Part shown: positions 2,508 to 55,539 of the stretch, piece after piece
How positions within the stretch are numbered: position 1 is the stretch's first letter
Layout of the letters: every line of letters starts with the position of its first letter
Source of the DNA: Geminicoccus sp.
GTDB lineage: Bacteria; Pseudomonadota; Alphaproteobacteria; UBA7985
Direction: 5' to 3'
DNA: 64,000 nt
NCBI GenBank assembly: GCA_002708995.1
Contig: PAPT01000025.1
Location: 10,548 to 74,547, forward strand
The notes under the pieces: model-generated
What the model saw: only the letters and a program-made list of their open reading frames with translations
What the model was told of the DNA's origin: nothing
Databases searched by the model: none
Program-made: the position numbers and the translations under genes

Positions 2508-3911
2508 ATGGCTGGCTCTCGTTCACCGTTCACCAATCCCCTGCTCAAGGGCTTTGACGAACGTCTCCCTATTCTGCGTGCCGTGCACTACTCGATGACA
2601 CAGCACGCCTACCCCAAGAACCTGAACTACTGGTGGAACTTCGGCTCGATCTCCGGGATCATGCTGCTGGTGATGATCGTGACGGGTCTGTTCCTGGCCA
2701 TGCACTACAAGCCATCGGTTCAGGAAGACACCTACGGCATCAACCAGGCGTTCCGCTCGGTCGAGCACATCATGCGTGACGTGAAGGGTGGGATGTTCCT
2801 GCGCTACATCCACTCGGTCGGGGCGTCGTTCTTCTTTATCGCCGTGATCTTCCACATGTTCCGCAGCCTCTACTACGGCTCGTACAAGGCGCCGCGGGAA
2901 CTGCTTTGGATTCTGGGCTGTATCATCCTGATCCTGATGATGGCGATTGCCTTCCTCGGTTATTCACTGGTCTGGGGCGTGATGTCCTTCGCCGCTGCTG
3001 AAGTGATCACCCAGGTCTTCACCGCTATCCCGGTTCTGGGCGACGATATCCTGATGCTGCTGCGCGGGGGTGAGGACGTGGATGACGCGCTCCTGAACCG
3101 CTTCTTTGCGCTGCACTTCCTGCTGCCGTTTATCCTCGCTGGCGTAGTGATTCTGCACATTCTGACGCTGCAGACCGTGGGTTCCAACAACCCGCTGGGG
3201 GTCGACATCAAGTCGAAGAAAGACACCGTGTCCTTCCACCCCTACTACACCTTCAAGGACATCTTCGGCCTGTCGGTGTTCTTCACCATCTATCTGGCGG
3301 TTGTTGCCTGGGCGCCGGAGCGTCTGGCCGAGGCGATCAACAACCAGCCGACGGACTACAACCTGCCGTCCCACATCGTACCCGAATGGTACCTGCTGCC
3401 GTTCTACGCGATCCTGAAGGTCTTTACCTGGGACCTTAACATCTTCGGTCTGGTGATCACCGGTAAGCAGCTGGGTGCCCTCGCCATGGGCGGTTCGCTC
3501 GGCGTACTGTTCCTGCTGCCGTGGCTCGACACCTCCCCGGTGCGGTCCGCGCGCTTCCGGCCGCTGTACCGGCTGGCGTTCTGGGGCTTCGTGCTGACCT
3601 GCGTGATCCTCGCGCTGGTCGGGGCGCAGACCTCGGGTGAAGCCTTCTTCATCCCGACGCCTTTCGGCCGTATCCCGCTGGGCTTCGAAGCTGAGAATGG
3701 CTTCGTCTGGGGTTCGACCCAGCAGTGGGGCGTGCTGTTCATGCTCTACTACTTCGGTTTCTTCATCGTGCTGATGCCGGTGCTGGGTCTGTTCGAACGA
3801 ACCCGGACGCTACCAGCTTCGATCTCCGAACCTGTGCTGCCATCGAGCCAGGGCGCGGGCGCTGTTGCTGCTGCTGTGGCGGTGGCCAAGCCGATGGCCA
3901 AGGCCGACTGA
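2508..3911 (+). CDS. petB: Cytochrome b (bc1 complex)
   Basis: 467 aa polytopic protein with cytochrome b signature (YGSYKAPRELLWILG, heme-ligand His-containing helices). Immediately follows petA. Confidence 0.95.
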   Translation: MAGSRSPFTNPLLKGFDERLPILRAVHYSMTQHAYPKNLNYWWNFGSISGIMLLVMIVTGLFLAMHYKPSVQEDTYGINQAFRSVEHIMRDVKGGMFLRYIHSVGASFFFIAVIFHMFRSLYYGSYKAPRELLWILGCIILILMMAIAFLGYSLVWGVMSFAAAEVITQVFTAIPVLGDDILMLLRGGEDVDDALLNRFFALHFLLPFILAGVVILHILTLQTVGSNNPLGVDIKSKKDTVSFHPYYTFKDIFGLSVFFTIYLAVVAWAPERLAEAINNQPTDYNLPSHIVPEWYLLPFYAILKVFTWDLNIFGLVITGKQLGALAMGGSLGVLFLLPWLDTSPVRSARFRPLYRLAFWGFVLTCVILALVGAQTSGEAFFIPTPFGRIPLGFEAENGFVWGSTQQWGVLFMLYYFGFFIVLMPVLGLFERTRTLPASISEPVLPSSQGAGAVAAAVAVAKPMAKAD

Positions 3912-3983
3912 CCTTTTCGCGGGACGGGCCCCGGCCCGTCCCATTCCGCCGAAGCCAGACCCTCATTTAAGAAAGCATCGTTC

Positions 3984-4799
3984 ATGCGTTTCGGAACATT
4001 GATCAAAACCCTCAGCGCCGCCGCCGCCTTCATGGCCGTCGCCGCTGCGCCAGCCCAAGCCGAAGAAGCCGGACCGGTCGACTCGCAAAGCTGGACCTTC
4101 ACCGGCCCTCTGGGCCACTACGACGAGCGCCAGCTGCAGCGCGGTCTCTACATCTACCAGACCCGCTGTCAGGCCTGTCACTCGCTGGGTCTGGTGCGCT
4201 TCTCCTCCCTCGCCGACCTTGGCTGGGAGCTGCTGGAAGGTCAGACCGGTGAGGACGTGGCCAAGGCCATCGCATCGAACTACGAAATTCCGTACATCAA
4301 CGACGACGGCGAAAACGACACCCGCCCCGGCGTGCTGAACGACACCTTCCCCTGGGCGCTTGGCAATCCCAAGCGCGCCACGGCCACTTACGGCAAGGCA
4401 CCGCCAGACCTGTCCACCATGGCGCGTTCGCGCATCGGCGGGGCCGACTACATCTACGCGCTGCTGACCGGCTACGACGATGCCCACGAGCAGCCTGAGG
4501 GCGCCTACTACAACAAGGTCATGCCCGTTATCGCCATGCCCAACCCGTGGCCCGCGGATATGTCCGACTTCGAATACCCGGACGGCACCGTGCCGACGCT
4601 GGAGCAGCAGTCTCGCGACGTGACAGCCTTCCTCAACTGGGCAGCTGACCCCTACCTTGAAGCCCGCCACAAGTGGGGCATCGTGGTCGTGCTGTACATG
4701 CTGGCGCTGACCATCATCTCGTTTTTCGCCTACCGTATCGTTGCGGCGCAGGTGCACAGCCGCCTCGAAGCCGAGGGTGGGCCGGAACCGGATCACTAG
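3984..4799 (+). CDS. petC: Cytochrome c1
   Basis: Signal peptide, single CQACH heme-binding motif, C-terminal membrane anchor. Third gene of fbc/pet operon. Confidence 0.9.
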   Translation: MRFGTLIKTLSAAAAFMAVAAAPAQAEEAGPVDSQSWTFTGPLGHYDERQLQRGLYIYQTRCQACHSLGLVRFSSLADLGWELLEGQTGEDVAKAIASNYEIPYINDDGENDTRPGVLNDTFPWALGNPKRATATYGKAPPDLSTMARSRIGGADYIYALLTGYDDAHEQPEGAYYNKVMPVIAMPNPWPADMSDFEYPDGTVPTLEQQSRDVTAFLNWAADPYLEARHKWGIVVVLYMLALTIISFFAYRIVAAQVHSRLEAEGGPEPDH

Positions 4800-4859
4800 G
4801 CCGGGTCGCGAGATCGATCAGACATCGAAAAACAGGTCTCCTCGCGGGACCAGAGAAAA

Positions 4860-4893
4860 AAGGCTGCGGCATCCCCGCAGCCTTTTTTGTTGT
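4860..4893 (+). terminator. Rho-independent terminator after petABC (ggctgcgg-catcc-ccgcagcc + TTTTTTGTTG)
   Basis: GC stem-loop followed by 6-T run 60 nt downstream of petC stop. Confidence 0.75.
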
Positions 4894-4986
4894 CCCCAGG
4901 TTACCAGCCGCCAAGGGCGTTCAATTCGCCCCGGCTTTGCTCTAGAGTACCGCCACTTGCCCCCGCACTGGTGGAGAAATAAGCCC

Positions 4987-5862
4987 ATGTTCTCAGTTGT
5001 CACCGACCACCCGGACGTTCCGGGCGATGCGCCCATCATTGGGCTCGACCACGTCATTCTGGCGGTGAGCGACCTTGAGGCTGCGCAGGCGAAGGCCCGC
5101 AAACTCGGTTTCACCACCACCGACATCACCGCCCACGTCGGCTGGGGTACGGCCAACACCTGCGTAATGTTCCGCGGGCTGGATGATCAGGGCGACTATC
5201 TCGAAATCCTAGGCGTACGCGACGCCAGCATCGGCACGAACGGCCTCGACGACCATCTGGCCGAACAGGGTGAAGGCCTGCTGTCGCTGGCGCTCAAGGG
5301 CCGGGCCGAGCTGGCGGCCGCTGCCTTCGATGAAAACGGGCTGGCGCATCTGGGCATCGAGAACCTGCACCGCAACGTCGAGGTTGTGCCGGGCATGTCC
5401 CAGCGCGCCTCGTTCAAGCTGGTGCGGCCACAGCGCGGGCCGTTCTCGCCCGTGCCGCTGTTCGTCTGCGAGCACCTGACCCCGCAGGCGGTCTGGGCCG
5501 ACCGCTTCGTTCACCACGAGAACGGCACCCTTGGCATCCGGGCCGTGCAGATGCGGATGGCCGATGGCAGCACGCTGGGCGAAGGCTACGAGGCCCTGCT
5601 CACCGGCAAGCTCACCGGCAGCATCGCAAAGCCGATCGGCGCCGACCTCGAATTCTACAGCGCCGAGGACTGGGCGCAGATTTACCCCGACGCCGAAGCC
5701 CACGAAGCCATCGTCTATCAGGTCGAGGATCTGACTAAGACCGGGGAGTTCCTCGCCAATTCCGGGCTGGCCTTCCGCCCGGCGATGGCGGGCTATCGCG
5801 GCTACATCGTATACCCCGGCGACGCGGGCGGGGCCTACGCGGTGTTCACCGACGGCACTTGA
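4987..5862 (+). CDS. VOC (glyoxalase/bleomycin-resistance/extradiol dioxygenase) family protein, two-domain
   Basis: Long ORF 4741..5862 overlaps petC. The in-frame ATG at 4987 (MFSVVTDHP...) gives a 291-aa protein with a VOC-like pattern (GLDHVILAVSDLEAA ... repeated beta-alpha-beta-beta-beta halves). Function is not assignable. Confidence 0.65.
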   Translation: MFSVVTDHPDVPGDAPIIGLDHVILAVSDLEAAQAKARKLGFTTTDITAHVGWGTANTCVMFRGLDDQGDYLEILGVRDASIGTNGLDDHLAEQGEGLLSLALKGRAELAAAAFDENGLAHLGIENLHRNVEVVPGMSQRASFKLVRPQRGPFSPVPLFVCEHLTPQAVWADRFVHHENGTLGIRAVQMRMADGSTLGEGYEALLTGKLTGSIAKPIGADLEFYSAEDWAQIYPDAEAHEAIVYQVEDLTKTGEFLANSGLAFRPAMAGYRGYIVYPGDAGGAYAVFTDGT

Positions 5863-5978
5863 GCCGCGACGGCCCACGCGGGATTAATCACACAATTTTC
5901 AGCGCCCACTAATATTGCCCCGTGCCGGCAACGGCCTAGTTTCACCTGACAACCGAGTCCTCGCAAAAAGAGGTTGTC

Positions 5979-6365
5979 ATGCGCGCCCTTTTCTTCTCTC
6001 TCGTCGCGGTCGTCAGCGTCGCTTCTCCATCGCTGGCCCAGGATCTGCGCGGCATGTGGCTGGACAACAAAGCCTGGGATGGCGTTCAAGCGGTCGTGCA
6101 GATGTACGACTGTGAAGACGGCACCGGCCTGTGCGCCCGCATCGTGCGCGCCTATCAGGGGGAGCTGGCAGCGGGGCAGCAGAACTATCTGCTGATCCGA
6201 TCGGTTCAGCCGCGCCGTGCCGGCATGTTCGAAGGCATCATCAACCCACCGGTGAGCTTCGTCGGTGACTCAAAGGTAACCATCAAGGTTCAGGACGCGG
6301 TGACGATTTCCTACAGCTCGTGCTTCTTGCCCGTGTGCAAAGGCACCATGACCCGGATGCAGTAA
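5979..6365 (+). CDS. Secreted DUF2147-like protein (paralog 1)
   Basis: Signal peptide (MRALFFSLVAVVSVASPSLAQ), then the GxW...LC..I motif characteristic of DUF2147. RBS aaaaagagg upstream. Confidence 0.5.
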   Translation: MRALFFSLVAVVSVASPSLAQDLRGMWLDNKAWDGVQAVVQMYDCEDGTGLCARIVRAYQGELAAGQQNYLLIRSVQPRRAGMFEGIINPPVSFVGDSKVTIKVQDAVTISYSSCFLPVCKGTMTRMQ

Positions 6366-6488
6366 GCCGGCGGCAGGACCCTTCTGCCGATCCCTAAAAT
6401 CCAACTTTTTTCTTCTCGAGCCGGGCCCGAACGCTGTTCAGGTCCGGTTTTTGCGTTTTCCGGGGGTAGCGACATCGTCACTCGGCAT

Positions 6489-6899
6489 TTGCATCGCATG
6501 CTGCTCAAGACTTTTGCTGCCTCTATCCTGCTCAGCCTTCTCGGTGGCGGTGCGTTCGCGCAGGCTAACCCGTTGCAGGGCTACTGGCAGATGGACAGCC
6601 CGATGCAGGGTATGCAGGCGATCGTCGAGCTCTACAACTGCGGCGATGACGCCGTTCTGTGCGGGAAAATCGCCGCCGTGATCGGGGAAAAGATCGACCG
6701 GCGGGAGGTGCTGAAGCGGCAGCTGCTGCACGGCCTGCGTCGCCAGCCAGACGGCAGTTACAAGGGCAAGATGAAGATGCCCGCCAGGTCCCTGCCGGTC
6801 ATGAATGCGCTGGTGCAGCCTGCCTCACGCGACAACCTAGCGATCAAGGCCTGTTTCTTCCGGCAGTGCCGCTCGGGCAACCTGTCCCGGCTGAACTAG
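6489..6899 (+). CDS. Secreted DUF2147-like protein (paralog 2)
   Basis: Signal peptide plus region alignable to the upstream paralog (GYWQMDSPMQGMQAIVELYNCGDDAVLCGKI vs GMWLDNKAWDGVQAVVQMYDCEDGTGLCARI). Confidence 0.5.
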   Translation: MHRMLLKTFAASILLSLLGGGAFAQANPLQGYWQMDSPMQGMQAIVELYNCGDDAVLCGKIAAVIGEKIDRREVLKRQLLHGLRRQPDGSYKGKMKMPARSLPVMNALVQPASRDNLAIKACFFRQCRSGNLSRLN

Positions 6900-6911
6900 C
6901 GCCGCACCTGC

Positions 6912-8009
6912 TCAGACGTTAAAGCGGAAGTGGAAGATGTCGCCGTCCTTGGCGACGTAGTCCTTGCCTTCGACCCGCAGTTTTCCCGCATCCTTGGCAC
7001 CAGCTTCACCGCCGCAGGCGATGAAGTCGTCGTAGGCGATGGTCTCGGCCCGGATGAAGCCCCGCTCGAAATCGGTATGGATGGCGCCGGCAGCCTGCGG
7101 TGCGGTTGCACCGGTGCGCACGGTCCAGGCGCGGGCCTCCTTTAGCCCGGCGGTGAAAAAGGTCAGCAGGTCGAGCAGGCCATAGCCCCGGCGGATCAGA
7201 CGCGCCAGCCCGGTCTCCTGCAAGCCAAGGGTTTCGAGGAACTCGCGCTTGTCTTCGTCGGTGGGCAGCGCGGCAATCTCGGCCTCGATCGCCGCAGAGA
7301 TGAGGATGGCGCTGGCGCCCTCGCGCTCGGCCAGCTCGAACACGGCGGCGGAGTGGTGGTTGCCTTCGGCGGCGTCTTCCTCGCCGACATTGCAGACGTA
7401 GAGCACCGGCTTGGAGGTCAGCAGCTGCAGCTGGCGCACGATCTTCATCTCTTCAGGTGAAAACTCGACTGTGCGGGCGGTCTTGCCTTCGGTCAGCGCA
7501 GCGGCCAGCGGCTCAAGGATCGCCATCAGCTGCCGGGCTTCCTTGTCGCCCGACTGCGCGCGCTTGGATTCCTTGGCCATGCGCTTTTCCACGGCATCGA
7601 GGTCGGCGATCATCAGCTCGGTGGTGACAGTCTCGGCGTCGCGCACGGGGTCGACCGAGCCGTCGACGTGGGTGACTTCACCGTCGAAGCAGCGCAGCAC
7701 GTGCAGGATGGCGTCGGTTTCGCGGATGTTGGCGAGGAACTGGTTGCCGAGGCCTTCGCCCTTGGATGCCCCTCGGACCAACCCGGCGATGTCCACGACT
7801 TCGAGCTGGGTCGGCAACACCTTGGCACTCTGCGCGATATCGGCGATGACGTCCAGTCGCGGGTCGGGAACCGCTACGCGGCCGGTGTTGGGCTCGATGG
7901 TACAGAAGGGGTAGTTGGCCGCTTCGGCCGCCGCCGTTTCGGTCAGCGCGTTGAACAGCGTCGATTTACCGACGTTGGGCAGCCCGACTATACCGCAGTT
8001 GAATCCCAT
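6912..8009 (-). CDS. ychF: Ribosome-binding ATPase YchF (Obg-family GTPase)
   Basis: [24 protein letters not shown]-loop; C-terminal TGS domain. Start placed at ATG 8009 rather than the upstream ORF extension. Confidence 0.95.
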
Positions 8010-8085
8010 GGTCTGTGTGTCCTTGTTCTGGTCCGAGCCGCGCCACTTCGCGGGTTGCAGTGCGCGAGCGTCGCCCCCCGGGGCG

Positions 8086-8823
8086 TCAGTCGTCTTGATC
8101 GGGGGAGGATTTCCCCCGGTTGAGCAGGCGGGACAGGGCGGCACCCAGCGCGGTGGGCGGCCCCTTGCCGATAACCTTGGTCGGCGCCGCGACCGGCGCA
8201 TTGGTGCCGCTGCGGCTGCCACTGCCTCCTTTAGCAGGCTTGGCGCCAGAGGCGGGCTCGTCCAGCACCTGCATCGACAGGCTCATGAACCCGGATTCAT
8301 CGCCGCTGAGCAGCCGCGGCAGGTTGTCTGCCATGGCCCCGAGCAGGGTATCGACCCGGCGGCGGTCGTCCTTGCCGAAGTCGTGCAGCACGTGGGCCGG
8401 AACCCGGTCCTTGTGGCCGGGATGGCCGATGCCGATGCGTACCCGGCGATAGTTCTGCCCGATGTGGGCGTCGAGCGACTTGATACCGTTGTGCCCACCC
8501 GAACCACCGCCACGCTTGATCCGCACCTTGGAGGGGGGCAGATCGAGCTCGTCGTAGAATACGGTCACGGCGTCGGCCTTGAGCTTCCAGAAATCCAGCA
8601 CGTGCCGAAGCGGCTGCCCAGATTTATTCATGAAGCTCTGCGGCTTGACCAGCACCACCTTCTCACCGTCGATGCGGACCTCGGCGACCTTGGCCTGTGC
8701 ACGCTCCTTCCACTTCGCCGCGCCGAAGCGCGCAGCAAAGAGGTCGAGGGCCATGAACCCGACGTTGTGACGGTGGCCCTCGTACTGTCGCCCGGGATTA
8801 CCCAGTCCAACAAGAATGTGCAT
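8086..8823 (-). CDS. pth: Peptidyl-tRNA hydrolase with Gly/Ser/Pro-rich C-terminal extension
   Basis: MHILVGLGNPG...HNVGF...GHNG motifs. Classic ychF-pth-rplY-prs cluster. Confidence 0.9.
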   Translation of the reverse strand: MHILVGLGNPGRQYEGHRHNVGFMALDLFAARFGAAKWKERAQAKVAEVRIDGEKVVLVKPQSFMNKSGQPLRHVLDFWKLKADAVTVFYDELDLPPSKVRIKRGGGSGGHNGIKSLDAHIGQNYRRVRIGIGHPGHKDRVPAHVLHDFGKDDRRRVDTLLGAMADNLPRLLSGDESGFMSLSMQVLDEPASGAKPAKGGSGSRSGTNAPVAAPTKVIGKGPPTALGAALSRLLNRGKSSPDQDD

Positions 8824-8933
8824 GGTCCGTGCTCCGGTCTGTCTTCAGCGGGCAGCGGTCAGCTGAATAGCCCGGGCCGAAGCCGATGGTTCACAACGGC
8901 TGGCCGGGGCTGTCTGGCCGGATCCGATCCGGC

Positions 8934-9581
8934 CTATTCTTCGGCGTCGCCGCGTTCGGCATCGCCGTCGCCATCGGCCGCGGCCGCAGCCTGATCCATC
9001 ATCTGACGCTTCAGAGCGGACGGTGCGGTCACGGTTGCGATCACGAAGTCACGGCCAACGATGGTCGGTGTTACGTTACCGCTGACCTGCACCATGGAGT
9101 ATTTCACGGCGGCGTTGATCTGCAGGCCGGCGAGATCGGCGTCGAACTTGGTCGGGATTTCACCGGCCTTGCAGCGCACCTCGACCGAGTGACGGACGAC
9201 GTTGAGCACGGCGCCGCGCTTCAGGCCCGGTGAATCGGCTTCGTTGACGAAATCGACTGGGACGCGGACCTTGACGATGGTGTCGGGGTCGACACGCATG
9301 AAGTCGACGTGGATCGGCTGATCGGTGACGCGGTCGAACTGCACATCGCGGGGCAGCACGTTCATCTGCTTGCCGTCAACGTCCAGCGCCATGACCTTGG
9401 CGAAGAAGCCGCGCTCATTGAGGCCCTTCCAGATCGGGCGGGGGTCGATGGCCACCATTTCAGGGTCAGCCGCACCACCGTAGATCACGGCGGGGACGAG
9501 GCCTTCCTTGCGGGCTGCCTTGGCTGCGGTCTTACCGGCGCCGGGCTTGGCCTTGGCCGGAATAGTCATTGCGATGTCCAT
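8934..9581 (-). CDS. rplY: 50S ribosomal protein L25 / general stress protein Ctc
   Basis: L25/Ctc beta-barrel homology plus acidic C-terminal tail. AGGAG RBS 8 nt before ATG 9581. Confidence 0.9.
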   Translation of the reverse strand: MDIAMTIPAKAKPGAGKTAAKAARKEGLVPAVIYGGAADPEMVAIDPRPIWKGLNERGFFAKVMALDVDGKQMNVLPRDVQFDRVTDQPIHVDFMRVDPDTIVKVRVPVDFVNEADSPGLKRGAVLNVVRHSVEVRCKAGEIPTKFDADLAGLQINAAVKYSMVQVSGNVTPTIVGRDFVIATVTAPSALKRQMMDQAAAAADGDGDAERGDAEE

Positions 9582-9676
9582 GGGGACTTCTCCTGTATCA
9601 GAGGTAAGAATTTAAGTGTCAGAAAGCTGCCGGGTCAGGACAGACGGTAAAGTCGAAACCGGGACGACGGTCCCGG

Positions 9677-10618
<942 letters not shown>

Positions 10619-27034: not shown

Positions 27035-27910
27035 TCAGAGACCGCGGACGTGGTTGTGGTAGTCGGTCAGCAGATCGCGGGTTACTTCACCAACCTGATA
27101 GTTGATGTCGCCGATCTGGTTGATCGGGGTGACTTCCGCCGCCGTACCCACGATGAATACTTCCTGCATCTCGGCCAGTTCCTCGGGCAGGATGTGGCGC
27201 TCGATCACCTCGATGCCCTTGACCCGGGCGCGTTCCATTAACGTCTGCCGGGTAATGCCGTCGAGGAAGCAGTCCGGGGTCGGGGTGTGCAGCGCGCCAT
27301 CCTTGACGAAGAAAATGTTGGCACCCGTGCACTCAGCGACGTAGCCGCGCCAGTCGAGCATGATCGCATCGTTGAAGCCCTGCGCCTCGGCCTCGTGCTT
27401 GGAGACAGTACAGATCATGTACAGCCCCGCCGCCTTGGCGTGGACCGGTGCACACTCGGGCGAGGGCCGCTTGTACTTTGCCCACTGCAGCTTGATCCCG
27501 GCCATGCGGGCTTCGGGGTCGAAGTAGGAGCCCATGTCCCAGCAAATGACCGCGACGTGGGTCGTGGTCTGCTGGGCCGAGATCGCCATCATTTCCGACC
27601 CGCGCCAGGCGACCGGGCGGACGTAGGCGTCGGTGAAGCCCTGCGCCTCGAGCGAGGTGTAGGCCGCATCATAGAGTTCCTTGTTGGAATAGCCGATGTC
27701 CATGCCGAGGATTTCGGCCGACTTGAACAGCCGGTCGGTGTGTTCCTGGTGCTTGAATATCTTGCCCCCGTAGGCGCGCTCGCCCTCGAACACACAGGAC
27801 CCGTAGTGCAGCCCGTGAGAGAGGATGTGCAGCCGCCCTTCATCCCAATCGACCATTTCACCGTTGTACCAGAGCTTGCCGCCAAGCTTATCGAAGGGAA
27901 TGCTAGCCAT
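27035..27910 (-). CDS. ilvE: Branched-chain amino acid aminotransferase
   Basis: Class IV aminotransferase signatures (ECTGANIFFVKDGALHTP, VGTAAEVTPI). Start at ATG 27910. Confidence 0.9.
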   Translation of the reverse strand: MASIPFDKLGGKLWYNGEMVDWDEGRLHILSHGLHYGSCVFEGERAYGGKIFKHQEHTDRLFKSAEILGMDIGYSNKELYDAAYTSLEAQGFTDAYVRPVAWRGSEMMAISAQQTTTHVAVICWDMGSYFDPEARMAGIKLQWAKYKRPSPECAPVHAKAAGLYMICTVSKHEAEAQGFNDAIMLDWRGYVAECTGANIFFVKDGALHTPTPDCFLDGITRQTLMERARVKGIEVIERHILPEELAEMQEVFIVGTAAEVTPINQIGDINYQVGEVTRDLLTDYHNHVRGL

Positions 27911-28033
27911 ACTGAGGACTCCACTTTGGCCGAGGCACCACCATCGGCGCCTCTTTCGCGGATAACGGGGGGCTGGATTTATGTCAACAGTCCTGACATA
28001 TTTTGCCAAGCTTAACGAGTACTGGACCCGAGC

Positions 28034-28555
28034 TTGTCTGATAACCCGCCCGACGCCGACGCCCCGACTGCGTCCGACAGCCCCCGGCGCGCGGCGTCAC
28101 TGGACTCGGCGGCCAACGAAGCCATCGAACTGATGTTCTTCGCCTACCGCGACTTTACCGATGTCGCCGACCGCATCCTCGAGCAGCACGACCTGGGGCG
28201 GGCCCACCACCGGGCGCTCTATTTCGTCGGTACGGGGCAGGATGTCACTGTCGGCCATCTGCTCGATACCCTCAATATCACCAAGCAGAGCCTGGCGCGG
28301 GTTTTGCGCCGCCTGATCGATCTGGGTCTGGTGGTGCAGGAAGTGGGCGCGGTCGACCGTCGACAGCGGCTGCTGCGGCTGTCGGGGGAGGGTGACGCGC
28401 TGCTGCAGGAACTGATCGAGGCGCAGCGCCGGTTGCTGCGCGAGGCTTTCACCGAAGCCGGAACCGAGCGGCTCGAAGGCTTCAGACGCGTGATGCTGGC
28501 GATCATGAATGAAGAAGACAGCGCCCGGTTCAACCGCCGCAAGCGCTTGCGCTGA
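28034..28555 (+). CDS. MarR family transcriptional regulator
   Basis: Winged-helix region (VGHLLDTLNITKQSLARVLRRLIDLGLVVQ). Divergent from ilvE. TTG start at 28034. An internal ATG at 28130 is possible. Confidence 0.7.
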   Translation: MSDNPPDADAPTASDSPRRAASLDSAANEAIELMFFAYRDFTDVADRILEQHDLGRAHHRALYFVGTGQDVTVGHLLDTLNITKQSLARVLRRLIDLGLVVQEVGAVDRRQRLLRLSGEGDALLQELIEAQRRLLREAFTEAGTERLEGFRRVMLAIMNEEDSARFNRRKRLR

Positions 28556-28613
28556 AAAGGCAGGCTCAGGCCGGGATCAGCTTAGCAACCTGCCGGTTGC
28601 CCGCTTCACCCAG

Positions 28614-29861
<1,248 letters not shown>

Positions 29862-29989
29862 TTAGCGCCAAAGGCTTCCCCCGCAAGCGGTGGTTGCCGT
29901 CGCACAGCCCTGCGTGCTACGGCCAGCCCTCGATTCCACACCTGGTGCGGTTCACACCGTTTGACTTCGGGGCGTCAGACTGCCATTTC

Positions 29990-30088
29990 AGGCGGGTCTG
30001 GGGTGCCGCCAGGTTCATTCCGTGCCAGCGGCTGAGATCATACCCATCGAACCGGATCTGGATCATGCCAGCGGAGGGAGACCCATCA
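29990..30088 (+). promoter_or_regulatory. TPP (THI-box) riboswitch
   Basis: Conserved elements in order: CUGGGGUGCC ... GCUGAGA ... ACCC ... GAACCGGAUCUGGAUCAUGCCAGCGGAGGGA. P1 halves gggtc/gaccc flank the element. It ends 2 nt before the ATG of the downstream gene, so the start site is embedded in the aptamer. Confidence 0.9.
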
Positions 30089-30090
30089 TC

Positions 30091-31194
30091 ATGAAACACA
30101 GCCGCCGTCGCTTTCTCAAGCAAGCCGCCCTTCGTGTCGGAACCGGGGCCAGCGCCGTTGCCGCCGCTGCAGCCAGTGGCGCCGTCGCAGCAGCGGGGCT
30201 CGGCCTCGCCACCCCGGCAATCGCGCAGGGCCTGCAACGCTGGCATCTGGTCACGTCGTGGGCAAAGGGCAGCGCCGGCCCGGGCACCACGGCCGACCGC
30301 CTCGCTGCGCGGATTACCGCGGCCACCGACGGTAAAGTCGACGTGCGCGTGCTGGGCGCGGGCGAGCTGACCTCGCCCTTCGGCGTGCTCGACGCGGTCA
30401 TCGATGGTGCAGCAGAAATGGCGCACACGGCCTCGTTCTTCTGGGCGGGACGGGCGCCTGCGGCGAGCTACTTCACTACCATGCCCTTCGGCCTGTCGCC
30501 GCAGGCGCACAGCGCTTGGGTCCGCTTCGGCGGTGGGCAGGCGCTCTGGGACGAGACCTACGCCCCGCTCGAGGTCAAGCCGCTGATGGCCGGAAACTCG
30601 GGGGCCAACATGGCAGGCTGGTTCAAGGCGCCGCTGCAGTCGCTGGCCTCGCTCAGCGGGGCTAAGATCCGCACCGCCGGGCTGGGCGGTGAAATCTACC
30701 GCCGGCTGGGGGCGACCACCGTGACCCTGCCCCCGACCGAGATTTTCGGCGCCCTACAAACCGGTGTCATCGACGCCGTCGAGTTCCTCGGGCCGTTCTC
30801 CGACCGCAGCCTCGGTTTCGATCAGGTCGCGGACCACTACTACTTCCCCGGCTTCAACAAACCCAACGGCACGGCTGAAGCCCTGATCAACGCCAACCTC
30901 TGGGCCAGCCTTAGCGACGACCTGCGCGCGGCGGTCCAGAATGCCTGCGACGCCGAAAACGACGCCGGACTGGCCGAAGCAACCTGGTTCAATGCGCAGG
31001 CACTCGCCGCCCTGCGCGCAGGCAGCACCCGCATCGAAGCCCTGCCCGACGACATTGTCGAGGCTGCCCGCGCGGCCTCGGTCGAAGTGCTGGCTGACTA
31101 CGCCGACAAGGATGCCATGACCCGCCGGGTCGACACGTCCTACCGCACCGCCCTGGAAGCACTGTCGGGTTGGGAGCGCCTTTATCAGGGCTGA
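30091..31194 (+). CDS. TRAP transporter solute-binding protein (DctP family), Tat signal (SRRRFLKQAAL). No adjacent DctQ/DctM.
   Basis: 367 aa. Twin-arginine signal. DctP-like length and motif distribution. Directly controlled by the upstream TPP riboswitch and followed by thiM-thiE. Confidence 0.6.
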   Translation: MKHSRRRFLKQAALRVGTGASAVAAAAASGAVAAAGLGLATPAIAQGLQRWHLVTSWAKGSAGPGTTADRLAARITAATDGKVDVRVLGAGELTSPFGVLDAVIDGAAEMAHTASFFWAGRAPAASYFTTMPFGLSPQAHSAWVRFGGGQALWDETYAPLEVKPLMAGNSGANMAGWFKAPLQSLASLSGAKIRTAGLGGEIYRRLGATTVTLPPTEIFGALQTGVIDAVEFLGPFSDRSLGFDQVADHYYFPGFNKPNGTAEALINANLWASLSDDLRAAVQNACDAENDAGLAEATWFNAQALAALRAGSTRIEALPDDIVEAARAASVEVLADYADKDAMTRRVDTSYRTALEALSGWERLYQG

Positions 31195-31278
31195 ACCCGG
31201 GGACAAGCCTTGGCGCACGAGAGGGCAGGCCAAGCCGAACCGGGCGCTAACCAGAGATGAACGAGGGATGAACCGCTG

Positions 31279-32049
31279 ATGTCTGCCATCGCCACCCTGC
31301 TGCCGCGCCTGCGCGCCGAACGCCCAATGGTCCACGCCGTGACCAACCCGGTCACCCAGCTGTTCGTCGCCGACGCGCTCAACGCCGTATCGGCGCGGCC
31401 GATCATGGCAACCGGCATCGACGAAATCGCCGAAATCAGCGCCGGCGCCGCGGGCCTGCTGATCAACATCGGCGTGCCGCAGTCGGTCGAGCCCTACGCG
31501 GCGGCCGTCAGCGCCCGCAAAGGCGGCAAGAACGCCACCAAGGGGGGCGGCTGGGTGCTCGACCCCGTGGGCGCAGGCGCCTCGCCGCTGCGCGACCGGA
31601 TCGCGGCGAGCCTGCTGGCCTCCAATCCCGGCCCGGCGATCATCCGCGCAAACGCCGGCGAAGTGCTGGCGCTGGCAGGGCAGGCCGGACTGACCAAAGG
31701 CGTCGACAGCCTCGCCAGCGCGGAAGAGGCAGCGGGCGTGGCCAAAATGCTGGCTGAAAAGTACGGCTGCGTCGTCGCCCTGACCGGCGCCACCGATTTT
31801 GTGGTCTCCGGCAGCCGCGTGGTCCGCTTGACCGGCGGTGACCCGATGATGGCGCGGGTGACTGGTATGGGCTGCGTCGCCAGCGCGCTGAGCGCGGCCT
31901 TCCTCGCGGTCGCCGACGACCCCTTCGACGCCACCGTCGCCGCCCTGCACCTGATGAGCGGGGCAGGCGACCACGCCGCCGCGACCACCAAGGGTCCGGG
32001 CAGCTTCCGCACGGCCTTTCTGGATGCCCTTCATGCCGCAGCGGCTTAG
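31279..32049 (+). CDS. thiM: Hydroxyethylthiazole kinase
   Basis: ThiM signatures (VHAVTNPVT, GAGDHAAATTKGPGSF). Confidence 0.9.
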   Translation: MSAIATLLPRLRAERPMVHAVTNPVTQLFVADALNAVSARPIMATGIDEIAEISAGAAGLLINIGVPQSVEPYAAAVSARKGGKNATKGGGWVLDPVGAGASPLRDRIAASLLASNPGPAIIRANAGEVLALAGQAGLTKGVDSLASAEEAAGVAKMLAEKYGCVVALTGATDFVVSGSRVVRLTGGDPMMARVTGMGCVASALSAAFLAVADDPFDATVAALHLMSGAGDHAAATTKGPGSFRTAFLDALHAAAA

Positions 32050-32713
32050 CCCCGAGACCCTGCGCCTCTATGCCATCTTCGGCCCGCAGGACCTCGCCGA
32101 AGGCTGGACAGCAGCCGGGCTGGCAAAAGCCGTGCTGCGCGGTGGGGCGACCTGCCTGCAGTGGCGGGACAAGACCGCGCTGGCCCGCGCGTCTCTGACC
32201 GAACGCGTGAACGCCTGCACCCCGGTGCTCGAGGCCGCCCGCGCCGCCGGTGCGCCGCTGCTGATCAACGACGATGTCGACCTCGCCGCCGCGCTGCAGG
32301 CTGAGGGTGTGCACCTGGGGCAGGACGACCGCGACCCGGAAAGCGCCCGGTCGCAACTGGGACCGGCAGCGATCATCGGCTGGTCGGTCGGCACGGAAGC
32401 CGAGCGCAAACGCCTGCTTGCGCTGCAGGCCAGGGCGCCGGACACGCTCGATTATATCGGGGTCGGCCCGGCCTTCGCCACCACAACCAAGGCCGACGCA
32501 GGGCAGGCGCTGGGGCCGCAGGGCATGGCAGCGCTGGTCGCGGGCCTGAGCTTGCCCGCCGTCGCGATCGGCGGTATCGACCGCACGCGCGCGCCGAAAC
32601 TGGCACAAATAGGCGTGGCGGGCGTCGCCGTGGTCAGCGCCCTGTCCCGGGCATCTGACCCGGCAGCCGAAGCCACCGCGATCCTGCAGGTCTGGAAACA
32701 CGCCGTGACATGA
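32024..32713 (+). CDS. thiE: Thiamine-phosphate synthase
   Basis: ThiE TIM-barrel motifs (LQWRDK, GVHLGQDD, IGGI). Overlaps the thiM 3' end. Confidence 0.9.
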   Translation: MPFMPQRLSPETLRLYAIFGPQDLAEGWTAAGLAKAVLRGGATCLQWRDKTALARASLTERVNACTPVLEAARAAGAPLLINDDVDLAAALQAEGVHLGQDDRDPESARSQLGPAAIIGWSVGTEAERKRLLALQARAPDTLDYIGVGPAFATTTKADAGQALGPQGMAALVAGLSLPAVAIGGIDRTRAPKLAQIGVAGVAVVSALSRASDPAAEATAILQVWKHAVT

Positions 32714-32866
32714 TGAAGTACGGCGAGACTTCGCTTTCACGGCAGATTCAGCTAATCTCGAAATTGCCAAACAAGAGGTGCAGATTAGGTTTCCCATAAG
32801 CCGGGACAAAACCGGCACTGGTCCAGCACCCGAGCCCATATTTGATCGATCATTCAGGAATTCACG

Positions 32867-33520
32867 ATGCACAAGTCCGCTGACGTAACCCGCCGCTTTG
32901 CCCTCGAAGCCGGTGTGGGCAGCGTACTCGCCCTCGGTTTGACGCCGGGGACCCTGCTGGCCCAATCCGATGAAGACCCCGCTGAGATCATCCTCCGCAT
33001 CGCCGGGGATGCCTTCAACCTGTTCGGGTCACTCAACGGCCGCAGCCGCGACTGGGGCTCCCGCCGTGCCTGGGCGCGCGACGTCACCCGACTGCGCTTC
33101 GCCACCAAGGACATGGCGGTGCGCGCCGGTGGTGCCTTCCTGCGTGAATTCGACGACGAAGAGCTCGAAACCTACTTTGCGCTGACCGAGCAGGCCGCAG
33201 CCGAGTTTCTGCTCGACATTTTCTCAGTCTACGAGACCAACACCTCGTTCTTGGTGAACCGGGTCCGTCCTAACCGCTCGAACACGGCAACGATCATGGA
33301 AACCACGGTGGTGGCGCAGGGCACGACCTACCGCGTCGACTGGACGGTGATCGACGATGGCGGCGTGCTCAAGGTCTCCAACGTCTCGATTTTCGGGCTC
33401 AATCTGGTGTCGGATTTCCGCGCCTCGTTCCGCGATTCCCATCGCAACGGCGGCGTGCGCAGCGTGCTGTCCATGCTCGACACCCGGGTCAAGCGCTCGC
33501 AGCGTAAGTTCCCCGGCTGA
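32867..33520 (+). CDS. MlaC/Ttg2D-family phospholipid-binding periplasmic protein (Tat-type signal)
   Basis: Signal RRFALEAGVGSVLALG and a loose match to the Tgt2/MlaC fold. Stand-alone gene. Low-confidence family call. Confidence 0.4.
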   Translation: MHKSADVTRRFALEAGVGSVLALGLTPGTLLAQSDEDPAEIILRIAGDAFNLFGSLNGRSRDWGSRRAWARDVTRLRFATKDMAVRAGGAFLREFDDEELETYFALTEQAAAEFLLDIFSVYETNTSFLVNRVRPNRSNTATIMETTVVAQGTTYRVDWTVIDDGGVLKVSNVSIFGLNLVSDFRASFRDSHRNGGVRSVLSMLDTRVKRSQRKFPG

Positions 33521-33582
33521 AGCCACACAGCACCGGGTCGCGTGGCATGACCGGCCAGCGCAGGTTACAGTTTGGCCGATGA

Positions 33583-34092
33583 TTAGTCTCTGAGCGAGAG
33601 CTCCATGAACAGGCTTTCGGGCGCATCATCGCCGATGTAGTCCCCGAAGGCGTCGCGCTCGACAAAGCCCTTTTCCCGGTACAGCGCGACGGCGGCCTCA
33701 AGCTTCAGCCCGGTTTCCAGCCGCACGAAAGCCAGGTCGCGCCGCTGCGCCATATCCAGCAGGGCTTCGAGGATCGCCCGCCCCAGTCCTTTGCCGCGGG
33801 CCACGGGCCGCACGTACATGCGCTTGAGCTCGCCCCAGTCGAGGTCCTTGACCACCAGCGCGCCGCAGCCCACGGCGTGCCCCTGATAGCGGGCGACCAG
33901 AAAATGCACGTAGTCGGTCGCCAGATCATCGACGCTGGACATGTAGACCGCGTCTTCGTCGTAGACCCCCAGCATTTCCCGGTCCAGCTCAGCAACCAGC
34001 GCCGCGACATCGGCCTGTCGCGGGTCTTCGAGGGCAAAGACCGCCACACCCGGTGCGGCGGTCTGATCAGCAGCAGGGCCGTCCGCAGCCAC
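33583..34092 (-). CDS. GNAT family N-acetyltransferase
   Basis: Acetyl-CoA motif RGKGLGRAILEAL. Confidence 0.7.
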   Translation of the reverse strand: MAADGPAADQTAAPGVAVFALEDPRQADVAALVAELDREMLGVYDEDAVYMSSVDDLATDYVHFLVARYQGHAVGCGALVVKDLDWGELKRMYVRPVARGKGLGRAILEALLDMAQRRDLAFVRLETGLKLEAAVALYREKGFVERDAFGDYIGDDAPESLFMELSLRD

Positions 34093-35087
34093 TATTCAAC
34101 GCCATCCGGTGGCGCGACCATGGGGGTGCGGTTGGTGCCCTTGGGCACGACCTCCCAGCCCGGGTACTCCGGCTCGTTGTCGACCATTTCGGCCGGAAAG
34201 CCATCGGCAAGAATCTCCACGCCAGCGGCTTCTTCCAGCCTCCGGATGATATTGGGCGACCACTCGCGCGCGCCGTAGCGGGCCTCGCCGTCCTTGAAGA
34301 TGTCGATCAGCATGGGTGAGATTTCGAGCTCGATCCCGGCCCGGTCGGCCACGGCCTGGAACAGGCCGATGTCCTTGCTGACCAGATCCATGGTGAAGTT
34401 GATGTCGCGCGACCCGTTCAGGATCACCTGACTTTCGGTTTCGTGGACAAAGGATGTGCCGCTGGAAATGCGGATCGCCTCGTAGGACGTGTTCAGGTCC
34501 ATGCCCGCCAGCTTGCAGGTGACCAGCGCCTCGCTCAACGTCACCAGATTGGCGGTTGCCAGATAGTTGGTCACCACCTTAAGGATGCTGGCGCTGCCCA
34601 GTTCCCCGGTGTGCAGGATGCGCCGACCCAGCGACTGGATCACCGGGAAGGCGCGCTCGAAGGTCTCACGCGTGCAGCCCGCGAAGATCGAGATGTTGCC
34701 CGTCGCTGCACGGTGACAGCCGCCGGAAACCGGGCAGTCGATCGGCTCCGCACCCTTGGCTTTGACCAGCGCCCCCAGACGCCGCACTTCACTCTCATCG
34801 GTGGTGCTCATCTCCGCCCAGATGCTGCCGGGGCGCAGACCGGCGAGGATGCCGTCATCGGCCTCCATCACCGCCGCGCTGGCGGCGGGCGAGGGCAGGC
34901 AGGTGATCACCATATCAACGGCCTCGGCCATGGCCTTGGGGCTCTCCGCCCAGTGCGCACCCTTGTCGAGGAAGGGCTGAGCCACGTCCTTGTCGAGATC
35001 GCGCACGGTCAGGTCAAAGCCGTTGCGCAGCAGGCTGCCGGACAGTTTCCCGCCGACGTTACCCAGACCGATAAATCCTACTTTCAT
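34092..35087 (-). CDS. NAD(P)-dependent oxidoreductase, 3-hydroxyisobutyrate dehydrogenase (HIBADH/6PGDH-like) family, with C-terminal extension
   Basis: GFIGLGNVGG Rossmann motif and HIBADH-like core. Start at ATG 35087. 1-nt overlap with the downstream GNAT gene. Confidence 0.75.
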   Translation of the reverse strand: MKVGFIGLGNVGGKLSGSLLRNGFDLTVRDLDKDVAQPFLDKGAHWAESPKAMAEAVDMVITCLPSPAASAAVMEADDGILAGLRPGSIWAEMSTTDESEVRRLGALVKAKGAEPIDCPVSGGCHRAATGNISIFAGCTRETFERAFPVIQSLGRRILHTGELGSASILKVVTNYLATANLVTLSEALVTCKLAGMDLNTSYEAIRISSGTSFVHETESQVILNGSRDINFTMDLVSKDIGLFQAVADRAGIELEISPMLIDIFKDGEARYGAREWSPNIIRRLEEAAGVEILADGFPAEMVDNEPEYPGWEVVPKGTNRTPMVAPPDGVE

Positions 35088-35250
35088 CGCTACCCCTCCT
35101 CCCGGGCTTCTGTGATTCGGCGTCGGGATACCATGTCCCGGGAACAGCATCTTTCGTTTTGCGACCCGCGGGCGGCGGGCGAAAGACGATTGCAGCCCCC
35201 AACCGAAATCGGCCCTTTACCGACTGGGCCAAAGTAGGCAAAAGGCGAAC

Positions 35251-55440: not shown

Positions 55441-55534
55441 AAGGGAAGATTGGAACGACCCGCACCGAATTCGTTACGGCTGCTTCCTTCCGGACCTGAC
55501 CGGATTGGCGAGAGGCACGTCCGCCCCAACCTTC
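55441..55534 (-). ncRNA. ffs: Signal recognition particle RNA (4.5S / SRP RNA, small bacterial type)
   Basis: Minus-strand sequence contains the conserved domain IV core GGUCAGGUCCGGAAGGAAGCAGCC. The 5' (GAAGGUUGG) and 3' (CCAAUCUUCC) ends pair. Located immediately upstream of dnaX as in many bacteria. Ends are approximate. Confidence 0.75.
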
Positions 55535-55539
55535 ACGGT

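Follow-up and report, generated by a model that had tools for sequence, protein, structure and literature searches.

The closest described periplasmic receptors of thiamin salvage are ThiY (of ThiXYZ) and ThiB (of ThiBPQ), which are regulated by TPP riboswitches and serve ABC importers for HMP/FAMP and thiamin, respectively. They have NMT1/THI5-like and class II ABC receptor folds, their systems are ATP-driven, and they are always encoded together with a permease and an ATPase. For the thiazole moiety, the transporters ThiW (an ECF S-component) and ThiU were reportedly predicted by Rodionov and co-workers from the linkage of a THI element with thiM; to our knowledge, neither has been proposed for a carboxylated thiazole. 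Gene catalogues list thiB, thiT, thiY, thiV, cytX, ykoF and omr1 for thiamin and pyrimidines, with the kinase thiM as the only entry for thiazole salvage (PMC10881298; PMC12998435). Studies of vitamin B1 in marine and freshwater environments have no marker gene for the uptake of thiazole precursors.

The structurally described proteins closest to the receptor reported here are TakP of Rhodobacter sphaeroides (2HZK/2HZL) and its relatives 7UG8 (Synechococcus CC9311), 5CM6, 4PET, 4YIC/4YZZ and TTHA0766 (2ZZV), all with the same PF03480 domain and the same fold; 4YIC we take to contain picolinic acid. The initial annotation of this DNA knew of no TRAP receptor under THI control, and a literature search likewise found no paper linking a TRAP or DctP receptor to thiamin or to a TPP riboswitch (RegPrecise and SEED were outside its scope, and unpublished annotation is not excluded).

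A TPP riboswitch upstream of a TRAP receptor gene, thiM and thiE

The operon lies in a 64 kb stretch of DNA, referred to as the window (Table 1). An affiliation of this DNA to the Rhodobacterales, assumed at first, is not shown: the closest genomes are MAGs that carry the labels Alphaproteobacteria, Rhodospirillaceae or Geminicoccus. The genes downstream of the solute-binding protein (SBP) had been read as thiM and thiE, and both score above the cut-off of equivalog-level profiles. They overlap by 26 nt, and no terminator-like site was found on the + strand inside the operon.

Table 1. Positions of the riboswitch and genes in the window
Feature	Position	Strand	Evidence
TPP (THI-box) riboswitch aptamer	29989..30096	+	RF00059, full-length model match
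Shine-Dalgarno-like GGAGGGAG	30073..30080	+	sequence reading and Rfam structure line
Orphan TRAP (DctP-family, TakP-like) periplasmic SBP, 367 aa	30091..31194	+	PF03480, AF2 model, Foldseek
thiM, hydroxyethylthiazole (thiazole) kinase	31279..32049	+	PF02110 214 bits; NF006830 equivalog 251 (cut-off 180)
thiE, thiamin-phosphate synthase	32024..32713	+	PF02581 167 bits; TIGR00693 171 (cut-off 145)

The riboswitch, initially recognised by its THI-box, matches RF00059 over model positions 1-105 with 63.5 bits and an E value of 4e-10 (gathering score 54.3; Rfam, window). Its P1 helix pairs GGGUC (29994-29998) with GACCC (30080-30084), and the ATG of the binding-protein gene (30091-30093) follows 6 nt after the end of P1, not 2 nt after the aptamer as first claimed; the Rfam alignment of the aptamer even extends across this ATG. 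GGAGGGAG, located 10 nt upstream of the ATG, lies within the 3' part of the aptamer (3' strand of P4, junction and first base of P1), and the syntenic loci L001-L010 share GGAGGGAGACC followed by 4-8 nt and the ATG. Because the ribosome binding site lies inside the 3' part of the aptamer and the ATG just 6 nt after P1, we propose that both are occluded at high TPP, when the aptamer would fold and translation of the binding protein would be repressed; the coupled expression of thiM and thiE would probably drop together with it. This occlusion is read from the sequence and has not been shown, and TPP binding and ligand-dependent repression are inferred too. Single-sequence RNA folds gave no signal, neither for the leader (z-score 0.99) nor for the spacer between the SBP gene and thiM (z-score 0.50).

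The binding protein was correctly recognised as a DctP-type SBP with a Tat signal: it matches PF03480 (DctP) with 137 bits (cut-off 23.4) and NF037995 (TRAP_S1) with 64 bits (cut-off 50), and its N-terminus, MKHSRRRFLK, carries the twin-arginine motif (SRRRFLK), of which R5 and R6 are invariant across 47 relatives. The Tat signal peptide comprises approximately residues 1-45, with the boundary between AIA and QG. The best PDB sequence matches are 7ug8, 4yzz/4yic, 5cm6 and 2hzk (E 1e-65 to 1e-52), and Foldseek aligns the AF2 model (pLDDT 88.5) to the same structures with TM 0.82-0.92. The model, which is a monomer prediction only, has long C-terminal helices (320-338 and 342-366). In a neighbour-joining tree, the thiamin-linked SBPs form one clade within the TakP-like TRAP receptors, and the best reading is that of a periplasmic receptor recruited from this alpha-keto-acid branch of the TRAP SBPs.

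The conserved linkage and the proposed ligand of the receptor

The comparative set comprises 118 loci of the SBP clade, 65 of which are complete operons with a riboswitch. The position of the riboswitch in the leader is conserved in that it heads all 65 operons; Rfam checks of another 35 loci placed RF00059 above the gathering score at the head of the related operons, and in the remaining loci the riboswitch was called by its THI-box pattern and not by Rfam. The complete operons contain thiM in 64, thiE in 51 and thiD in 44 cases. The most common gene order is riboswitch-thiM-thiE-thiD-SBP (34 operons), followed by the order of the window, riboswitch-SBP-thiM-thiE (17), riboswitch-thiM-thiD-SBP (9), riboswitch-thiM-SBP (4) and riboswitch-thiD-SBP (1). 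The immediate neighbour of the receptor gene is most frequently thiD, which is located directly upstream in most loci; as the gene of an HMP kinase, it could point to a pyrimidine ligand.

The linkage is found in several alphaproteobacterial groups, among them Hyphomicrobiales and Xanthobacteraceae, Beijerinckiaceae, Roseibium, Sneathiella, Lutibaculum and Benzoatithermus, and recurs in marine, soil and freshwater metagenomes; peptide patterns specific to the clade match at least 569 metagenome stretches. Loci L001-L010 form one syntenic lineage with the window. The linkage or the riboswitch is missing from a few clade members (L129, which has a LysR neighbour, L058 and L023). An EamA gene upstream of the riboswitch in the Roseibium and Lutibaculum type is a case of lineage-specific synteny.

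The key residues of the SBP are R194, E231, N173, N256, K257, P64 and G260. Two of these, R194 (R177 in TakP) and E231 (E214 in TakP), do not vary in any of the 62 sequences derived from loci or in the alignment of 47 sequences. Other residues of the binding site are remodelled: Q156, E214, E240, W215 (carbonyl) and Y100 of TakP correspond to N173, E231, K257, F232 and F117 in the window SBP, leaving E214 as the only residue kept of the cation-coordinating set and Y100. Lysine replaces E240 in about 87 of 120 relatives, Q156 is replaced by N, C, S or T in many clade members (part of the clade), and the cavity has the substitutions V97 to A, V245 to A/G/S, P243 to G and W239 to N, with several residues being smaller. 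In relatives linked to dctQM, position 156 is still Q or E and position 240 still E or Q. The Roseibium type (signature H/E), about a quarter of the close relatives, has kept the TakP cation ligands Q156, E214 and E240 and is nevertheless thiamin-linked; the lysine is therefore not required for a role in thiamin salvage.

At low TPP, the binding protein would be made, exported by the Tat pathway and capture a precursor of the thiazole moiety in the periplasm, most likely 5-(2-hydroxyethyl)-4-methylthiazole-2-carboxylate (cHET). The carboxylate of cHET would be clamped by the invariant R194, and K257, N256 and N173 would stand in for the Na+/Ca2+ site used by TakP-type proteins for the alpha-keto group. 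The ligand would then be passed to a TRAP DctQM unit that has its genes at another place in the genome and also serves other receptors, ThiM would phosphorylate it, and ThiE would join the product to HMP-PP, yielding thiamin phosphate. There are no binding data and the ligand is inferred from gene context and residue conservation only; we regard a thiazole-moiety receptor of this kind, with cHET as its most likely ligand and an unlinked TRAP unit feeding ThiM and ThiE, as probable by a modest measure.

The initial annotation had considered HET the obvious candidate ligand; its choice of the thiazole moiety is favoured by our data and HET itself is not, since the SBP belongs to the carboxylate-binding TakP subfamily and has kept the carboxylate-clamping arginine. 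Among the thiamin precursors discussed in the literature that we found, cHET is the only one that both has a carboxylate and depends on ThiM. ThiE accepts cHET phosphate as a substrate, and cHET itself is used at concentrations in the picomolar range or below (PMC5899164), implying high-affinity capture. HET supports growth of E. coli only at a concentration roughly a million-fold higher than cHET (PMC5899164), which suggests that it is not a substrate of high-affinity uptake.

A receptor for HET or for a pyrimidine moiety (HMP, AmMP or FAMP) in place of cHET is unlikely, and has several points in its support: thiM is annotated as a HET kinase, and thiD directly precedes the receptor gene in most loci. 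Some TRAP receptors, a minority, bind ligands other than carboxylates; one of these is presumably 4uab, a TRAP receptor with ethanolamine, a ligand without a carboxylate. The carboxylate clamp R194 is, however, invariant across the clade and all near relatives with a bound ligand hold a carboxylate, and thiM is present in more of the complete operons than thiD: 21 operons have thiM without thiD (the four with riboswitch-thiM-SBP and the 17 with riboswitch-SBP-thiM-thiE) and a single one has thiD without thiM, favouring a thiazole over a pyrimidine ligand. In addition, the operon of Benzoatithermus flavus (L059) also contains an NMT1-type, ThiXYZ-like ABC system, and as this is a known type of HMP importer, the pyrimidine route is already covered there. 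Against HET itself stands the high concentration needed by E. coli. At L114, a ThiXYZ-like set adjoins the operon on the opposite strand.

The inferred membrane partner and the remaining alternatives

The absence of adjacent dctQM genes, which had been noted for the window, was borne out there and in the clade: tblastn found no DctM in the 64 kb of the window and no adjacent dctQM in the 118 clade loci (about 895 kb of flanks), and a tblastn search with DctM and DctQ of the window and all 139 loci identified none adjacent to the receptor. Most clade loci have no transporter gene nearby, and among clustered ORFs within 7 kb of the receptor there was no conserved membrane protein, only lineage-specific synteny. 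The sole DctM matches in the flanks are from five near-identical Beijerinckiaceae loci, at a distance of at least 4.9 kb; they were rejected as partners, being on the opposite strand and separated from the receptor by an HTH regulator, cytochrome b561, cytochrome c' and a molybdopterin oxidoreductase. In the sister clade, three receptor paralogues stand in tandem next to one DctQM (L027, L030, L033 and L035), which makes a membrane unit common to several receptors plausible. We infer that the thiamin-linked receptor is served by a distant DctQM, with no partner identified in any genome.

It is improbable that the receptor works without any TRAP membrane unit, as a stand-alone scavenger or buffer, as a sensor or by docking on a non-TRAP importer. 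This would fit the fact that dctQM adjoins none of the 118 loci, in contrast to most non-thiamin relatives of the SBP, where it is found within about 2 kb, and at L059 the receptor gene is directly followed by genes for an ABC ATPase and permease. Yet the ABC set of L059 already has its own NMT1 receptor, most loci have no transporter gene in their vicinity, the sister clade exemplifies several receptors per DctQM, and we know of no DctP-family protein that serves a non-TRAP carrier.

We consider it more doubtful still that the protein has remained a receptor for alpha-keto acids or pyruvate, with a link to thiamin that is regulatory and does not reflect the substrate, explained by the consumption of alpha-keto acids in TPP-dependent reactions or by the role of pyruvate as a feed for DXP and thiazole synthesis. 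All liganded near relatives hold an alpha-keto or alpha-hydroxy monocarboxylate together with a cation (according to the structure descriptions, alpha-ketovalerate with Ca in 7ug8 and lactate with Ca in 2zzv; Na with an alpha-keto acid in 2hzl, where the TakP binding site is described, PMC1839085), and Roseibium-type members retain the full cation set Q156, E214 and E240. On the other hand, E240 has given way to lysine in most of the clade and many members have lost Q156, which, together with the several smaller cavity residues, argues for a different and larger ligand. Also, the gene resides in salvage operons (thiM, thiD, thiE) and not in operons for de novo thiazole synthesis (thiG/thiS/thiO) or for keto-acid metabolism, and unlike keto-acid systems it lacks its own DctQM. 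A chance juxtaposition of a riboswitch-controlled thiM-thiE operon and an unrelated TRAP receptor gene, for which the only point is the single syntenic lineage of L001-L010 with the window, is refuted by the comparative data: the riboswitch-SBP-thiM linkage predicted from the window is kept in 64 of the 65 complete operons and persists through at least five gene orders, several alphaproteobacterial groups and marine, soil and freshwater metagenomes.

Significance and comparison with known systems

The SBP clade can be tested as a candidate for the as yet unidentified receptor of the carboxylated thiazole precursor of vitamin B1: a riboswitch-controlled receptor that is tied to thiM is a concrete protein to purify and test, and could mark thiazole scavengers in metagenomes. 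The SBP also represents a naturally occurring orphan TRAP receptor and a cation site that a lysine may have replaced. More tentatively, and short of what we would call probable, the clade may be the missing high-affinity periplasmic receptor for cHET, the thiazole currency that aquatic microbes exchange, and the first part of vitamin B1 salvage to come from the TRAP family, having evolved from Na+/Ca2+-dependent alpha-keto-acid receptors by replacement of the cation with lysine and borrowing, as an orphan, the DctQM of another TRAP system. If this were true, TRAP systems would extend into vitamin salvage.

With TakP and its relatives, the window SBP shares the Tat-type signal, the arginine R177 (R194) and the glutamate E214 (E231), and the fold is kept (rmsd 1.4-1.9 Å) at only 29-36% identity; the long C-terminal helices of the monomer model may correspond to those of the helix-swapped TakP dimer. 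It differs from TakP by Lys for E240, Asn for Q156, Phe for Y100 and the changes V97A, V245A, P243G and W239N, and its gene is under the control of a TPP riboswitch in a thiamin-salvage operon, without adjacent takQM-type genes. Extracytoplasmic receptors that are orphans and share a membrane unit are known, for example as multiple SBPs per ABC permease or as the Bug proteins of the TTT family; the SBP clade resembles these in that the receptor gene has no adjacent membrane genes and differs in that its shared membrane unit has not been identified.

The assignment to the thiazole moiety follows the same logic as that of ThiW and ThiU, namely co-localisation with thiM under a THI element, except that ThiW and ThiU belong to other families and are integral membrane proteins, not periplasmic receptors. 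The SBP, whose gene likewise lies among salvage genes, would resemble ThiY and ThiB as a TPP-repressed periplasmic receptor of a thiamin moiety; unlike them, it is an orphan of the DctP family.

The operon in the window and its regulation

The initial annotation described a TPP riboswitch in front of a gene for a DctP-type TRAP solute-binding protein (SBP) with a twin-arginine signal, followed by thiM and thiE, and profile searches bear out each of these parts: the riboswitch is the only one in the window (Rfam release 15), the receptor scores above its cut-off with the NCBIfam family TRAP_S1 and starts with MKHSRRRFLK, a twin-arginine signal, and both thi genes exceed the cut-offs of their families. 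The distance between aptamer and start codon had to be revised from 2 to 6 nucleotides, measured from the end of the P1 helix. A GTG at 30022, in frame with the receptor, would fall within the aptamer, and relatives conserve the ATG start. Receptor gene and thiM are separated by 84 nucleotides, thiM and thiE overlap by 26 nucleotides and no terminator-like sites were found on the forward strand within the cluster. The flanks are housekeeping genes: uvrC, a CDP-alcohol phosphatidyltransferase, a class IV aminotransferase, marR and an aspartate aminotransferase upstream; an MlaC-like protein, a GNAT protein, a HIBADH-like dehydrogenase, apaG, recX, a class-III aminotransferase (argD-like) and an aspartate/ornithine carbamoyltransferase (argF-like) downstream. 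We consider it very probable that the riboswitch-SBP-thiM-thiE module is a functional thiamin-salvage unit.

Features of the window with their supporting profile scores
Feature	Position	Strand	Evidence
TPP riboswitch (RF00059)	29989-30096	+	63.5 bits (gathering score 54.3), full model
P1 helix of the aptamer	29994-29998 (GGGUC) with 30080-30084 (GACCC)	+	Rfam
Purine-rich GGAGGGAG	30073-30080		
Receptor gene	30091-31194	+	367 aa; first ATG after aptamer; PF03480 (DctP) 137 bits
thiM	31279-32049	+	PF02110 214 bits; NF006830 equivalog 251 bits (cut-off 180)
thiE	32024-32713	+	TIGR00693 171 bits (cut-off 145)
MlaC-family periplasmic protein gene	32867-33520	+	PF05494 51 bits
Small SRP RNA, bacterial (RF00169)	55441-55535	-	60.4 bits (gathering score 40)

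The SRP RNA is the only Rfam match of the window besides the riboswitch. The product of the MlaC gene 3' of thiE has a twin-arginine-like leader (TRRFAL). The order SBP-thiM-thiE-MlaC recurs in related loci (L001-L010, L061, L064 and L066) and also in the distant locus L058 (54% SBP identity), where only 26 nucleotides separate thiE from the MlaC gene; the MlaC gene may therefore be co-transcribed with the thiamin operon.

In operons of the window type, the start codon lies directly 3' of the aptamer and leaves no room for a terminator. GGAGGGAG spans the 3' strand of P4, the junction and the first base of P1 and lies 10 nucleotides upstream of the receptor ATG; L001-L010 conserve GGAGGGAGACC, followed by 4-8 nucleotides and ATG. 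If ligand folds the aptamer, this ribosome-binding site would be buried, so that translational repression is the likely mode as far as sequence can tell, and thiM-thiE expression would follow that of the receptor via coupling or polarity. Single-sequence folding provided no support for or against occlusion of the ribosome-binding site. Operons with other gene orders have the riboswitch in front of thiM and the receptor gene in last or second place, often with a 4-nucleotide overlap between the receptor gene and the stop codon of the gene before it. Three window-type leaders (L004, L009, L066) have the THI-box pattern without reaching the gathering score of Rfam; the leader alignment shows a longer P3-region insert for L004 and L009 (L066 is not in the alignment).

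Conservation of the thiamin linkage

Related loci came from a scan covering a single genome of each species (54 loci), from five isolate or MAG contexts identified by exact protein and from a metagenome scan (80 further loci). At least 569 metagenome stretches encode relatives of the receptor, and one metagenome locus (L060) encodes exactly the window protein (100% identity). Neighbourhoods were searched by tblastn with ThiM, ThiE, ThiD, DctM, DctQ and ThiXYZ queries, with the THI-box pattern and with Rfam. The clade of thiamin-linked receptors has 118 loci including the window, and 65 of these are complete operons headed by a TPP riboswitch: 34 have the order riboswitch-thiM-thiE-thiD-SBP, 17 the window order riboswitch-SBP-thiM-thiE, nine riboswitch-thiM-thiD-SBP, four riboswitch-thiM-SBP and one riboswitch-thiD-SBP. 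thiM is thus present in 64/65, thiE in 51/65 and thiD in 44/65, and the co-conservation of riboswitch, receptor and thiM, which the initial annotation had proposed as a check of the module, holds. Its taxon, Rhodobacterales, needs correction. Named carriers include Roseibium/Labrenzia, Sneathiella, Lutibaculum, Benzoatithermus, Rhabdaerophilum and MAGs of Xanthobacteraceae and Beijerinckiaceae, all Alphaproteobacteria.

Among the other loci, the majority are truncated on the 5' side and still have thi genes upstream. True exceptions are few: L129 has a LysR neighbour and no thi genes, L058 has no detectable riboswitch before SBP-thiM-thiE-MlaC, and L023 has thiM-SBP without a riboswitch. At L129 (711-4010), the LysR-type regulator gene precedes a receptor of 47% identity, no riboswitch was detected and a 401-aa ORF without Pfam match overlaps the receptor stop codon; this receptor may represent a secondary change of function.

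L001-L010 are a single lineage whose whole neighbourhood is syntenic with the window, and independent evidence therefore rests on the other gene orders. Within this block (window positions 27035-35150), the receptor (71-95% identity to the window), ThiM (60-95%) and ThiE (52-94%) diverge much faster than the neighbouring aspartate aminotransferase (91-98%) and HIBADH-like protein (86-99%). In Benzoatithermus flavus (L059, 7580-15020; GCA_037908215.1), one of the 34 operons of the commonest order, a single riboswitch heads nine genes: thiM-thiE-thiD-SBP is extended by an ABC ATPase (ThiZ), a permease (ThiX), an NMT1 receptor (ThiY) and a second thiM-thiE pair, so that thiazole kinase and synthase are duplicated in one operon. 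A metagenome protein from ENA (P0065, 624 aa) combines PF08543/PF00294 (ThiD-like kinase) with PF03480 and represents either a genuine fusion of thiD with the receptor gene or an error of gene calling at the 4-nucleotide overlap that these two genes usually have.

Receptor family, binding site and membrane partner

By sequence, the nearest proteins of solved structure are 7UG8 (E 4.5e-65), 4YZZ and 4YIC (about 5e-61), 5CM6 (1e-54) and TakP, the alpha-keto-acid receptor of Rhodobacter sphaeroides (2HZK, 1e-51); 4PET and the lactate-binding TTHA0766 are further relatives. With an AlphaFold2 model (mean pLDDT 88.5, 47-sequence alignment as input), Foldseek placed the same PDB entries on top (TM 0.82-0.92, rmsd 1.4-1.9 Å), including 7UG8, a Synechococcus CC9311 receptor with alpha-ketovalerate and calcium, and 2HZL, TakP with sodium and an alpha-keto acid. 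Because sequence and fold agree, the receptor belongs to the TakP-like branch of DctP-family receptors, whose characterised ligands are alpha-keto or alpha-hydroxy monocarboxylates bound along with a cation. In a neighbour-joining tree, every thiamin-linked protein falls into one clade with the Roseibium type basal, and its sister group is made up of loci in which three receptor paralogues stand in tandem beside one DctQM.

In TakP, R177 salt-bridges the carboxylate and Y100 hydrogen-bonds; Q156, E214, the W215 carbonyl and E240 bind Na+, and F40, I47, V97, Y99, T153, A212, P243 and V245 line the cavity (PMC1839085). HMMER alignments place the window residue at the TakP number plus 17 in the core.

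Binding-site positions in TakP, the window protein and relatives
TakP	Window protein	Thiamin-linked clade	DctQM-linked relatives
R177	R194	invariant	kept
E214	E231	invariant	kept
E240	K257	Lys in about 87/120 close relatives	E or Q
W239	N256	mostly Asn	W, H, Q or S
Q156	N173	many N, C, S or T, others Q	Q or E
I47	P64	mostly Pro, one subgroup Val	various
P243	G260	Gly	various
V97	A114	smaller residue	various
V245	A262	A, G or S	various
Y100	F117	F or Y	mostly Y

Read across the clade, these aligned positions indicate that the predicted carboxylate clamp is fixed and that most members have a dismantled cation site, Lys at a former cation-ligand position and smaller cavity residues. The Roseibium type (~33/120) retains Q156 and E240, with H at 239, yet is found in riboswitch-thiM-thiD-SBP operons.

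The absence of adjacent dctQM was already remarked in the initial annotation; tblastn found no DctM match in the whole 64 kb window and none in ~895 kb of flanks of the thiamin-linked clade (36 loci with at least 5 kb on either side), with the exception of five near-identical Beijerinckiaceae loci. The DctM of these five was rejected as a partner: it lies on the opposite strand, at least 4.9 kb off, with genes for a regulator, two cytochromes and a molybdopterin oxidoreductase in between. In the same scan, relatives without a thiamin link mostly have DctM within ~2 kb. No other conserved membrane protein emerged near the receptor when all neighbouring ORFs were clustered; the receptor gene thus consistently lacks a membrane-partner gene beside it.

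Four loci of the sister group (L027, at 3494-7005 and 7888-9701, L030, L033 and L035) have three tandem TakP-like paralogues with 40-45% identity to the window protein and, next to them on the opposite strand, just one DctQ-DctM pair. They are a natural example of a TRAP membrane unit that goes with several receptors. As sharing occurs in the TakP-like branch, a distant shared DctQM is the most economical inference for the thiamin-linked receptor; we lean towards it, with the partner unproven.

Ligand inference and relation to known systems

The operon context argues for the thiazole moiety as ligand, since thiM is near-universal, since thiM occurs without thiD in 21 complete operons and thiD without thiM in only one, and since the Benzoatithermus operon already has an NMT1-type ABC system. 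NMT1/ThiY-type ABC systems import HMP, the pyrimidine moiety. That the receptor handles the thiazole moiety is, from this context, fairly probable. The chemistry in turn argues for a carboxylate ligand. Among the thiamin-related compounds discussed in the cited literature, 5-(2-hydroxyethyl)-4-methylthiazole-2-carboxylate (cHET) is the one that bears a carboxylate; its use needs ThiM in vivo, its phosphate is a ThiE substrate, and E. coli uses it at sub-picomolar level, with a roughly million-fold higher requirement for hydroxyethylthiazole (HET); a transporter is not named (PMC5899164). Its C2 carboxylate beside the ring nitrogen presents the O-C-C=X arrangement of an alpha-keto acid, which, by inference, fits descent from alpha-keto-acid receptors. 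From thiazole context and carboxylate chemistry together, we therefore favour cHET, at about even confidence. The initial interpretation of the module is supported overall, with its preferred ligand changed from HET to cHET. Less favoured are HET itself, a pyrimidine, an as yet unrecognised acid related to thiamin, and alpha-keto acids as such.

Recent marine B1 surveys still list no transporter for thiazole, and thiM is their sole marker of thiazole salvage (PMC10881298, PMC12998435). A full-text literature search found no report linking TRAP or DctP to thiamin, thiazole or a TPP riboswitch; earlier annotation at database level is not excluded. A receptor without adjacent DctQM raises the question of its membrane partner. 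TPP riboswitch, DctP-family receptor, ThiM and ThiE are all known kinds of part. Apparently undescribed, as far as the literature is searchable, are a TRAP-family receptor within the TPP regulon, a monophyletic orphan TakP-like subfamily dedicated to thiamin salvage and a candidate receptor for carboxylated thiazole. This is not a new principle; it makes the trace-level capture of thiazole precursors, a question of B-vitamin ecology, directly testable by binding or knockout.
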